From the NCBI RefSeq assembly GCF_045037415.1, contig NZ_CP173438.1: a stretch of DNA of 64,000 nt; one strand, 5' to 3'. Below are positions 57,501 to 60,500 of the stretch, piece by piece (the first letter of the stretch is position 1; each line of letters starts with the position of its first letter). The position numbers are program-made. This stretch comes from Escherichia coli. Its GTDB lineage: Bacteria > Pseudomonadota > Gammaproteobacteria > Enterobacterales > Enterobacteriaceae.

Positions 57501-60500
57501 AAATTGAATATCTCAGCAGTGTTTGCCATAATTCCTCCCGCAATGAGTGTGTTACGATTTGCACCTGAAAGTCGGTTCTGTTCCAGCAGACCGGCTTTCG
57601 CCATTTCTGAACCTGTCATATCGCCCCCAGCATGGTAGTAACCATCGCCATCAATGGACCAGCCAGATCTGGGTCCACACGAAACATCGACACAATACCT
57701 TCACTAATTTCCTTCAGTTTCTGGTGGCGTGGTGCGTTGAGAATGACAGCCTGTTTTGCCTCACTGAGTTCCTTTTCCATTTCAGCCAACCTAGCCATGA
57801 AGCTATCCTGCTCAACCAGGTAACCGCGATATTCCAGCGGTAGTACCGCCAGAATTGCCGGGGTCAGTTCACGCACGTTATTTCGGTATTTTTCAGAATC
57901 GAATTTGTTATCGAGGAAGCGGAACAGCTTCTGGCGTGCACGGCTGACATCATCAGGGAAATCGATGGTGCCGCCGCCCTGCTCCAGATACTCATTCACA
58001 ATGAGTGTGGCAACGACATCCTGATTATCTACAGCCGACCAGGCGCGGACGGCATCACGGATTTTTTCGTGGCCTGGCACCTGTTTTGTTTGAGAACGAT
58101 TTATCACCGCAGTCGGGCTAAATCCGCTAGTCTGTTGGTATGTAAGTGGTTGCATAATTGACTCCTTTAGTTTGAATTGACTGTTAAGTTGATTGCTTAT
58201 TGTTAAAGAGCGTGAAATGGAAATTTAAGCTGCGTTCTTTTCGGTGTGTGGAAACAACTTCGGAAGATCCGGGCGAATCTGGTATGCCTTCACTACTCCA
58301 CCAGTAGCCGTAACAATGCTGCCGACATGTTCAGGGGATACCTTTGCTTTGTTGTGAAGCCACTTATAGACGGCCTGCTGTGAAACTTCGCAAGCAGCGC
58401 CCAGTTTCTTTTGTGAACCAACGATATTGATCGCTGTTTTGATAGCTGGGTTCATAACAACCTCCGTGGTTAATTTGAATCAAGATTAAAACTATGGTTG
58501 TTTTTAGTCAACAACCATTTTCGTTTGATGGAATAAAACCTTGGTTGTACATTTGGACTATGAAAACAACACTCTCAGAAAGACTTAAAGAAGCCAGATT
58601 AGCGCGAGGCCTTACACAAAAGGCGCTTGGGGATTTGGTCGGGGTTAGCCAGGCTGCTATTCAGAAAATCGAAACAGGGAAAGCTAATCAAACAACTAAA
58701 ATCGTGGAGATCGCGAACGCTTTGGGTGTGCGCGCAGAATGGTTATCTTCTGGCGTTGGAAATATGTCAGACAGTACAGTGCAACCAATACAATCAACTG
58801 TCAGCCATTCCAAATACTTCAAGATTGACGTTCTTGATATAGAAGTCAGTGCTGGGCCGGGAGTCATCAACCGTGAGTTTGTAGAAGTTCTACGCTCGGT
58901 TGAGTACTCGTTTGACGATGCTCGTCACATGTTCGATGGTAGGAAGGCGGAAAATATCCGCATCATTAACGTGCGTGGTGACAGCATGTCAGGAACGATC
59001 GAACCAGGTGATCTGCTGTTCGTTGATATCACAGTTAAATCTTTCGACGGTGATGGTATCTATGCGTTTCTGTACGACGACACAGCCCATGTAAAGCGCC
59101 TGCAAATGATGAAGGATAAGCTGCTGGTCATCTCTGATAACAAAAGCTACTCACCGTGGGACCCGATCGAGAAAGACGAGATGAACCGGGTGTTCATCTT
59201 CGGTAAGGTTATTGGGAGCATGCCGCAGACATATAGGAAGCATGGGTAGTACCAATTAAAAATTATCAACTGGGCATTGTGCTCATTCAGTAAAGAACTA
59301 ATTCCTATCTTTGCTCTAGGTAGTAATATTAAGCCACCGCAATAATATCTTTACCTAACGGCGTAAGAATCCCGGTCACCGTGCCGGGTTTTCTTTTGCC
59401 CTCCCCTCATCACACACACCGTTAAAAAAACCACCATAACCTCGCTTCAGTTATCGCTATGCGATTCAAGTCACAAAATAAATCCATCCTAAATACAACC
59501 AGTTATATCTAAAACAACCAATAAAACAACTTTTGTTGTTGACGATAAAACAACTATAGTTTTAAATAAGTTCATCGCAACAACACAACGATACGGCAAC
59601 TACCTGATTCACCGTTGCGATGACCGCTTAGATCCGCAGTTTGAATTTCAGCAGGCTTCGGGGAGTGCGAGGGGTGAAACGGACGCGTGAACGTCGGTGT
59701 GACCAGCTGAAATTAACTCAACATTTCATACCTTAGTCGCTTCAACGAGGCGGCTTAGTTATGACAACCGGCGGCCATCCACCGCCTGAATACGCGCAGA
59801 AGTCTCTATATGTTCAGCAGCCCAGCTTACGGGCAGGAGTTTTTATGGTTCATCAACATTACGGAACGCAGACCGTTAATCGCGGTGCGGTCATGCCAGG
59901 AATGCTGGTCAAACACAAAGATGGTACCTGGACTGCATCAGCTAATTTACGCGGACGGCTTTATCTGCATCGCGGCATCGAGCGCACTTATACCCGTGAT
60001 TTGCTCGTGGAAGTTTTTCTCGACGGACGCGGCAACGGCCTGAATCACTAATCCCCTTTCCTGTTTACCTAATCAGCCCGGCATTTCGCAGGCGATATTT
60101 TCACAGCCATTTTCAGGAGTTCAGCCATGAACGCTTATTACATTCAGGATCGTCTTGAGGCTCAAAGCTGGGCGCGTCACTACCAGCAGATCGCCCGTGA
60201 AGAGAAAGAGGCAGAACTGGCAGACGACATGGAAAAAGGTCTTCCACAGCACCTGTTTGAATCACTCTGCATCGATCATTTGCAACGCTGCGGGGCCAGC
60301 AAAAAAGCCATTACCCGTGCGTTTGATGACGATGTTGAGTTTCAGGAGCGCATGGCAGAACACATCCGGTACATGGTTGAAACCATTGCTCACCACCATG
60401 TTGATATTGATTCAGAGGTATAAAACGGATGAGTACAGCACTCGCAACGCTGGCTGGGAAGCTGGCTGAACGTGTCGGCATGGATTCTGTCGACCCACAG

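Follow-up and report, generated by a model that had tools for sequence, protein, structure and literature searches.

Two small genes in the early region of a lambdoid prophage of Escherichia coli occupy the positions of cro and cII and belong to protein families that carry toxin names, which raises the question of whether they form a toxin-antitoxin (TA)-like pair or the regulators of lysis and lysogeny. The early region makes up the right end (∼55.9-64 kb) of a 64,000-nucleotide stretch of contig NZ_CP173438.1 (RefSeq assembly GCF_045037415.1), here referred to as the window, in which lambda-leftward corresponds to the plus strand. A sequence-only reading of the window had described the genes, which encode proteins of 76 and 179 amino acids (aa), as early regulators of a non-lambda type, had considered the second one not to be cII-like, and had likened both to the ydaS-ydaT modules of the Rac type, which have been discussed as regulators and as TA-like pairs. 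Both open reading frames (ORFs) are real genes with good Shine-Dalgarno sequences, and they lie on the minus strand at exactly the coordinates given by that reading. We consider it highly probable (roughly 0.88) that the module is the lysis-lysogeny immunity region of a lambdoid prophage in which the functions of Cro and CII are provided by YdaS- and YdaT-family proteins of the phi80 type.

Family membership of the two regulators

The 76-aa protein matched the Pfam family YdaS_toxin (PF15943) with 62.2 bits (cut-off 30; E = 4e-17), in agreement with the proposal that the gene in the cro position encodes a helix-turn-helix (HTH) protein of the YdaS/Cro type. Weaker Pfam matches were to P22_Cro and HTH_3, PHROG 35 ('transcriptional repressor') was matched with E = 1.5e-27, and the nearest solved chains were 3bd1 ('Cro protein') and 5w8y (E ∼1e-3). 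The protein contains a single HTH and is encoded by the first gene of the PR operon, with PR and its operator immediately upstream. Taken together, these matches identify it as a YdaS-family, P22-Cro-like, all-alpha HTH regulator of the Cro type. The likeness to the Rac pair of K-12 was real as well, pairwise identity amounting to 30% over 63 aa (E = 1e-8) for YdaS and 36% over 96 aa (E = 2e-13) for YdaT.

For the 179-aa protein, the YdaT profile search that the earlier reading had proposed gave a match to YdaT_toxin (PF06254) of 103.4 bits (cut-off 21; E = 9e-30), while PHROG 163, 'CII-like transcriptional activator', was matched with E = 6e-67. At E ≤ 1e-3 there were 675 database homologues, many of them 179-180 aa long and from Citrobacter, Klebsiella, Enterobacter and Salmonella. 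When 50,697 phage records were searched with tblastn, the protein matched the phi80 gene that is annotated as cII ('CII decision making protein', PHI80_49), with 65.6% identity over all 179 residues, together with CII of mEp237 (67%), cII of HK225 and HK639 (51%) and a CobraSix protein (72%). The gene order in these phages is cI, divergent from a cro-like gene, cII, an M3/oop-like RNA and the replication genes; likewise, the 179-aa gene of the window lies between the cro-like gene and the replication initiator gene and is divergent from the repressor gene, the context of the YdaT family.

No relation to the CII protein of lambda was detected: the 179-aa protein had no match to Pfam Phage_CII, the lambda CII family, at E ≤ 0.1 and none in NCBIfam, and a BLASTP comparison with lambda CII gave E = 0.72. 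By its sequence, it stands outside the lambda CII family, and with both members falling into YdaS/YdaT Pfam families the pair is indeed non-lambda in sequence. The view that the gene is not cII-like therefore holds with respect to lambda CII and fails with respect to phi80 cII. Jurenas et al. stated that YdaT of CP-933P is homologous to phi80 CII (PMC8630535), and the matches described above indicate that 'YdaT' and 'phi80-type CII' are two names for a single family, and that the 179-aa protein is a CII despite its lack of similarity to lambda CII. A clear cII-family match had been named as the observation that would speak against the earlier reading; such matches were found in PHROG 163 and phi80 cII, but with YdaT and phi80-type CII being a single family, the test was ill-posed and does not distinguish between the two readings.

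The structure of the 179-aa protein was modeled as a monomer with AlphaFold2 from a 21-sequence alignment (mean pLDDT 74.5). In this model, the N-terminal ∼25 residues are disordered (pLDDT <50 for residues 1-25) and helices span residues 29-43, 45-58, 70-82, 88-104 and 107-113, followed by a long helix at 119-138 and two extra C-terminal helices; it thus shows a POU-like five-helix HTH and a long oligomerization helix. The only solved relatives by sequence were 8BT1 (CP-933P YdaT) and 3C4R (E ∼1e-3), and Foldseek searches of the PDB returned the same two entries only (probability 1.00, target-normalized TM 0.62-0.65), all others having E > 1. The recognition helix, SRARQKLFRFLDN (residues 70-82), is almost invariant in the subfamily, and its core QKLFRFLD corresponds to QKIFRWLD in CP-933P YdaT. 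R79, which is invariant in alignments of 21 and 7 sequences, aligns with R57 of Rac YdaT, the conserved DNA-contact arginine; neither Q75 nor R79 varies even when Rac is included.

Operators, promoters and candidate YdaT boxes of the immunity region

Homology and anatomy show an arrangement in which PR, overlapped by an operator palindrome for CI and Cro, drives cro(ydaS)-boxA-cII(ydaT)-O-P, with a divergent gene for a CI repressor of the S24 type (Table 1). The operators and promoters are lambda-like in position and the gene order is that of the phi80-type phages, which argues for a CII role of the 179-aa protein. The OR palindrome is a perfect 9-7-9 inverted repeat that is unique in the window (0.02 expected). 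A related dyad, GTTGTT-N7/8-AACAAC, lies with a TTGACG near 59535-59560 in the OL/PL region. The ATG at 58560 is located 7 nt after the −10 of the PRM candidate. A longer cI ORF starts inside the operator, and deposited annotations, such as that of phage PhiR34_1, use that ATG, giving a protein of 251 aa. The homology of cI begins at ATG 58560, however, and by analogy with lambda and CP-933P, for which leaderless repressor mRNAs are a precedent (PMC8630535), this ATG is probably the start codon on a leaderless PRM transcript.

Table 1. Features of the prophage region and their positions in the window
Feature	Position	Strand	Remarks
Cro-position gene (YdaS family)	58225-58455	minus	76 aa; GGAGG 5 nt 5′ of ATG
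CII-position gene (YdaT family)	57616-58155	minus	179 aa; AAGGAG 7 nt 5′ of ATG
cI-type repressor gene	58560-59249 (longer ORF from 58494)	plus	HTH_3 and Peptidase_S24 (Pfam); PHROG 4
Replication initiator gene O	ORF 56600-57619; probable gene 56600-57529	minus	Phage_rep_O, E = 1e-33
Replication gene P (helicase loader)	55902-56603	minus	PF06992 (Phage_lambda_P), E = 3e-61; PHROG 109
OR/PR region	58483-58518	minus	operator palindrome overlapping PR
OR palindrome	58494-58518		ATGGTTGTT-N7-AACAACCAT
PR, read from sequence	58511-58506 (−35); 58488-58483 (−10)	minus	TTGACT, 17-nt spacer, TAATCT
PRM candidate	58525-58530 (−35); 58548-58553 (−10)	plus	TTGATG-17-TACATT
OL/PL region	59490-59575	plus	repeated ACAACCA / AACAAC half-sites and GTTGTTGACGATAAAACAAC; resembles OR
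boxA-like element	58200-58212	minus	CGCTCTTTAACAA; 69-nt cro-ydaT spacer, nutR position
Probable oop/M3-like antisense RNA unit	57504-57612	plus	between ydaT and O; promoter (57504-57532) and hairpin (57566-57600)
Candidate YdaT box	58090-58107	minus	GTGATAAATCGTTCTCAA; ydaT codons 17-22; two mismatches to TTGAT(T/A)-N6-(A/T)ATCAA
Second candidate YdaT box	58466-58483		two mismatches
nin-region promoter-like element	47830-47858	minus	TTGATT-17-CATAAT; dyad = −35 + spacer; −10 at 47835-47830
nin-region dyad	47841-47858	minus	TTGATT-ATGAAT-AATCAA
nin-region hairpin	47797-47825	minus	loop CTGAACAA; immediately after the −10
Inverse autotransporter gene	51744-55652	minus	1302 aa; IAT_beta and Big_1/Invasin_D3 repeats, two long near-identical internal repeats
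IS66-family element	49182-51598		within cargo block
BD-FAE esterase gene	48124-49155	plus	within cargo block

The 13-mer in the cro-ydaT spacer, which we take to be the boxA consensus, is the only zero-mismatch match in the window; a boxB-like hairpin was looked for after this element in the spacer and none was seen. Where relatives carry a different Cro allele, boxA is replaced by a hairpin, GCCGC(N)TAA(N)GCGGC, that surrounds the stop codon of cro. Downstream of ydaT, an 86-nt gap to O is masked by a 30-codon upstream extension of the O ORF. Translation of O probably starts at ATG 57529 (MANTAEIF...) and not at the ORF start at 57619, since the alignment with PHROG 277 begins at residue 31 and homologues start at the aligned ATG; the first 30 codons of the ORF are probably untranslated. 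This segment contains the only promoter-like match that a consensus scan detected in 57400-59400 (TTGAAT-17-CATAAT, with a TG before the −10) and a hairpin of −26 kcal/mol (z = −2.8). Furthermore, it aligns with the M3 RNA of phi80, which is annotated as 'homolog of lambda oop', and with mEp237, HK225 and HK639, and it probably encodes an oop/M3-like antisense RNA. When 55800-60200 was searched against Rfam (E ≤ 1), a single chance-level match came up (rliD, 15.9 bits; gathering score 50); the oop-like and PL-leader regions are therefore not covered by any known RNA family.

On the plus strand, gam, bet and exo lie downstream of the repressor gene, and no gene for an N-like antiterminator was seen between PL and gam (59575-60127). 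This interval holds a ∼130-nt structured leader (predicted −48.7 kcal/mol), a short stretch resembling the tL1A terminator of phi80, and a 77-aa ORF without a Pfam match. Since the infectious phage PhiR34_1 has the same PL-gam arrangement, antitermination in this prophage may be RNA-based or absent.

The sites to which the 179-aa protein might bind were considered in the light of two published boxes. The tetrameric, POU-like HTH protein YdaT of CP-933P binds TTGATT-N6-AATCAA (Prolic-Kalinsek et al., PMC9986795), and the Rac box ATGATTCATGAAAATCAA, of the form ATGATT-N6-AATCAA, was footprinted over the ATG of ydaT (Wons et al., PMC11879457). Although the Rac and CP-933P proteins are only 30% identical, each recognizes the box of the other (PMC11879457). 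Because of this cross-recognition and the near-identical recognition helix, the 179-aa protein is expected, by analogy, to have the same dyad specificity.

The best candidate for a box that would activate a promoter in the direction of cI is located within ydaT itself, at codons 17-22 (GTG ATA AAT CGT TCT CAA). This position is just upstream of the part that encodes the DNA-binding domain and is homologous to that of the Rac box at the ydaT ATG. Among 14 diverse homologues, 13 retain nTG ATA AAn Cnn nnT CA(A/G), that is, nTGATA-N7-(C/A)TCA(A/G): codon 17 keeps its -TG, whether it specifies V, M or L, Ile18 is always encoded by the rare ATA, and the third base of codon 21 is T throughout, whether the residue is S, A, N or D. 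Synonymous sites near codons 17-22 are free to vary, and the pattern looks like a constraint at the DNA level. In the 5.5-kb immunity loci of 12 relatives, no consistent intergenic box was found near the cro/cII junction, and matches occurred only at +48 within the gene.

By analogy with Rac YdaT, CP-933P YdaT and phi80 cII, the switch may be pictured as follows. The 76-aa Cro would bind the OR and OL dyads and shut off cI. The 179-aa protein would tetramerize via its long helix, bind dyads of the TTGAT(T/A)-N6-(A/T)ATCAA type through the helix QKLFRFLD, and activate a weak, reverse-oriented promoter located in the 5′ region of cro/ydaT; the resulting production of CI would establish lysogeny. 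The small oop/M3-like antisense RNA encoded just downstream would probably temper the expression of cII.

Several observations weigh against this picture. Identity of the 179-aa protein to the two YdaT proteins that have been studied biochemically is only 27-36%, and both of these lack the conserved ∼28 residues at its N-terminus and ∼40 at its C-terminus. Between cro and ydaT, the best candidate boxes have two to three mismatches and none is exact. With up to three mismatches allowed, the window has 44 boxes where 41.9 would be expected; this is no enrichment, and a degenerate match thus counts for nothing on its own. The exact match described below is the only one to stand out. Lastly, a consensus scan did not reveal a PRE-like promoter; this would be expected for a promoter that depends on an activator, but it is a gap all the same.

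Comparison with known systems places the module among its relatives. The phi80 group, including mEp237, HK225 and HK639, has cII homologues of 179-180 aa in the same slot, with the N-terminal extension and the C-terminal tail; it also shares the oop/M3-like antisense RNA region after cII and the nin-region dyad. In contrast, its Cro partner, cI and operators differ, making the phages heteroimmune; gp15/gp14 replace the lambda-type O/P, and a GCCGC...GCGGC hairpin is found in the cro-cII spacer instead of boxA. YdaT of CP-933P (8BT1) and its O6:H1 homologue (3C4R), which occur with YdaS and PaaR2, belong to the same Pfam family and share the fold and the cro-cII-O context, and the CP-933P protein is a CII analogue that activates a reverse promoter (PMC8630535, PMC9986795). 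It is ∼27% identical and has 141 residues, whereas the window protein is ∼38 aa longer, with a disordered N-terminus and two more C-terminal helices; moreover, the CP-933P repressor is PaaR2, with a ParE2 TA cassette, and that of the window is a LexA-type CI of the S24 family. The Rac prophage carries a homologous YdaS-YdaT pair with a divergent repressor, RacR, and its YdaT box at the 5′ end of ydaT (PMC11879457) matches the dyad in codons 17-22. However, the Rac prophage is defective and its repressor is not of the S24 type; Rac YdaT (140 aa) is devoid of both extensions and has H56 and W58 in place of F78 and F80. Lambda, with its Cro, CII, PRE and oop, resembles the window in gene order, in the expected logic of a CII-type activator of repressor establishment, and in the position of the antisense RNA. 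In lambda, too, the CII site lies within the 5′ part of cII, as the embedded dyad does in ydaT here, but it is a direct repeat (TTGC-N6-TTGC) rather than an inverted one, and lambda CII has 97 aa as opposed to ∼180 for the activator discussed here.

A conserved dyad at the nin-region promoter

Across the 64 kb, the published YdaT box is matched without a mismatch at one site only. This site lies in the nin region, between the BD-FAE esterase moron and a ninB-like gene, where it forms part of a promoter-like element. The esterase gene belongs to a cargo block that extends between P and the nin region (48124-55652; Table 1). The hairpin that follows the −10 has an invariant loop, and changes in its stem are compensatory among phi80, CobraSix, BHUENT6 and the window. 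The dyad itself recurs as TTGATTTTGGGAAATCAA in phage 82, PhiR34_1 and DLP12 of K-12 (upstream of ylcH-ybcN; NC_000913, 572285-572302), as TTGATAAAACACTATCAA in phi80 (JX871397, 38718-38735) and HK225, as TTGATTTTCTGGAATCAA in HK639 and CobraSix, as TTGATTTTCCTTTATCAA in KO-TP1 and as TTGATTTCCCATAATCAA in PhiR5_1. Across phi80, HK225, HK639, CobraSix, KO-TP1, PhiR5_1, PhiR34_1, phage 82 and DLP12, the half-sites and the −10 are constant, while the N6 and N5 are free; at least seven phage lineages show this pattern. In phi80, this is the only match to the box with at most one mismatch in the whole 46-kb genome. For phage 82, a putative promoter and a 'possible regulator-binding site' were annotated here by Mahdi and colleagues (X92588), the latter being the only label that the hairpin carries there, and the dyad site is not mentioned in either of the two YdaT papers.

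A YdaT-type cII was also present in 26 of the 30 phage records with the element, even though their immunity and replication modules differ. The remaining records were the near-identical Enterobacter phages BHUENT6, ENT1 and BHUENT3, and Klebsiella phage 2 LV-2017. Of the three Enterobacter exceptions, BHUENT6 alone was examined, and it has a one-mismatch dyad without the −10 and no detectable cII of the YdaT or lambda type; Klebsiella phage 2 LV-2017 has only a partial match to the element and no dyad at up to two mismatches. The tie between the dyad and the YdaT-type cII is strong but not absolute, and it is confounded by linkage and shared ancestry. CI and Cro were considered as binders and rejected, given that the dyad is constant across heteroimmune phages with differing operators; a conserved CII can explain such constancy, which immunity-specific repressors cannot.

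The nin-region dyad is thus a possible second target of YdaT/CII, and it is the sole new lead of this analysis, put forward as a hypothesis. The box upstream of ylcH-ybcN in DLP12 is the same and exact, so YdaT of Rac could cross-regulate another cryptic prophage of K-12. Only tentatively, and with the odds somewhat against the whole, we propose a combination in which phi80-type CII proteins would have a conserved second operator near ninB and throttle the nin/Q late genes by repression, in a PaQ-like manner, Rac YdaT would cross-regulate DLP12, and the PRE box would lie in codons 17-22 of cII.

This site also bears on the possibility that the 179-aa protein is a transcription factor that mainly represses phage promoters (PR or nin) or reprograms host genes, as Rac YdaT does at rcsA. 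The single exact box of the window overlaps the −35 of a rightward promoter that is close to the consensus, a geometry that is repressor-like, and the second candidate box sits between the PR −10 and the cro ribosome-binding site. In addition, Rac YdaT footprints over PydaST and activates the host gene rcsA (PMC11879457), and YdaT was called the 'repressor' equivalent in the CP-933P study (PMC9986795). Nevertheless, in both of the systems studied, YdaT activates transcription toward the repressor gene (PMC8630535, PMC11879457), and the phi80 homologue is annotated as a 'decision making' cII. Repression at additional sites would be compatible with a role as CII, and as an account replacing that role we regard it as improbable.

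Partner exchange and the toxin label

The notion of a TA-like pair, in which a growth-arresting toxin restrained by its partner or by the repressor would stabilize the prophage, derives from names and from overexpression phenotypes. Pfam lists the families as 'Bacterial toxin YdaS/YdaT', and the Prokaryotic Genome Annotation Pipeline (PGAP) name is 'toxin YdaT domain-containing protein'. Silencing of racR or overexpression of Rac ydaS/ydaT is toxic (PMC5700377, PMC5700373), and overexpression of Rac YdaT leads to filamentation via rcsA (PMC11879457). Against this stand the HTH DNA-binding folds of both proteins, the presence of the module in plaque-forming temperate phages, and the absence of a PADLOC match for either protein.

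The association of ydaT with its upstream neighbor is particularly informative. In IMG/VR, ydaT genes of at least 92% identity adjoin two different Cro alleles in 80 viral loci, about half with the Cro of the window and about half with a different YdaS-family Cro (MTNQTIQ...), and the breakpoint is right at the start of ydaT. The partner in phi80, gp30, scores 29.8 bits for YdaS_toxin, just below the 30-bit cut-off; CobraSix has an XRE/HTH_3 protein and L081 an unrelated HTH protein. On a Logan contig of SRR8450027 (L102, 397-1140), a YdaT-type cII with 64% identity to the window protein directly follows a true lambda-family Cro (PF09048), which shows free exchange between Cro families and YdaT-type cII. 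With the more distant homologues adjoining XRE-type, phi80 gp30-type and true lambda Cro proteins, there is no co-evolving pair, and the inheritance as a cognate pair that marks type II TA systems is not seen. The exchange of ydaT independently of its upstream partner, which is not how cognate TA pairs behave, speaks against a TA system.

The literature has largely settled the matter. Jobling reasoned from the genetic context that ydaS corresponds to cro and ydaT to cII (PMC5917428), and a negative TA test by Christensen-Dalsgaard (2010) is cited there and in PMC9986795. In CP-933P, the roles of CI, Cro and CII are taken by PaaR2, YdaS and YdaT; a test of the TA hypothesis was negative, and YdaT was non-toxic and activated the reverse promoter (Jurenas et al., PMC8630535). 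For Rac YdaT, activation of a reverse promoter within ydaS reached 29-fold, and the toxicity of its overexpression operates via host rcsA (Wons et al., PMC11879457). By analogy, any growth defect on overexpression of the window protein would reflect secondary effects of a phage transcription factor and not a toxin function. With independent exchange, no PADLOC match and four negative or regulatory accounts in the literature, the TA-like interpretation raised by the earlier reading is very unlikely to be correct.

The module is widespread. The 3.4-kb segment from P to cI is 99.8% identical in Escherichia phage PhiR34_1 and 96-98% identical in IdasGreatGrand, PhiR47_2, PhiR5_1, 4A7, Lambda_4C10, Perceval, 1W and 3W, and the genes are annotated as Cro and cII in all of these phages. 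PhiR34_1, IdasGreatGrand, 4A7 and Perceval are infectious temperate phages, and for the immunity region the identity to infectious phages was 97-99.8%. A 1.1-kb probe spanning both genes matched 2223 of 5426 complete E. coli genomes (41%), in which the PGAP toxin name is the one in use. The pair is thus an already known one, namely the previously described Cro-CII of the phi80/YdaST class in a very common prophage.

What follows is primarily a correction of annotation: the 'toxin YdaT' in 41% of the complete E. coli genomes is a CII-type lysogeny regulator of a lambdoid phage family that is still infectious. This is relevant for counts of TA loci and for the prediction of prophage inducibility. 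The dyads at the nin promoter and at the 5′ end of cII are the only forward-looking element, as they provide concrete candidate binding sites for this regulator in intact phages.

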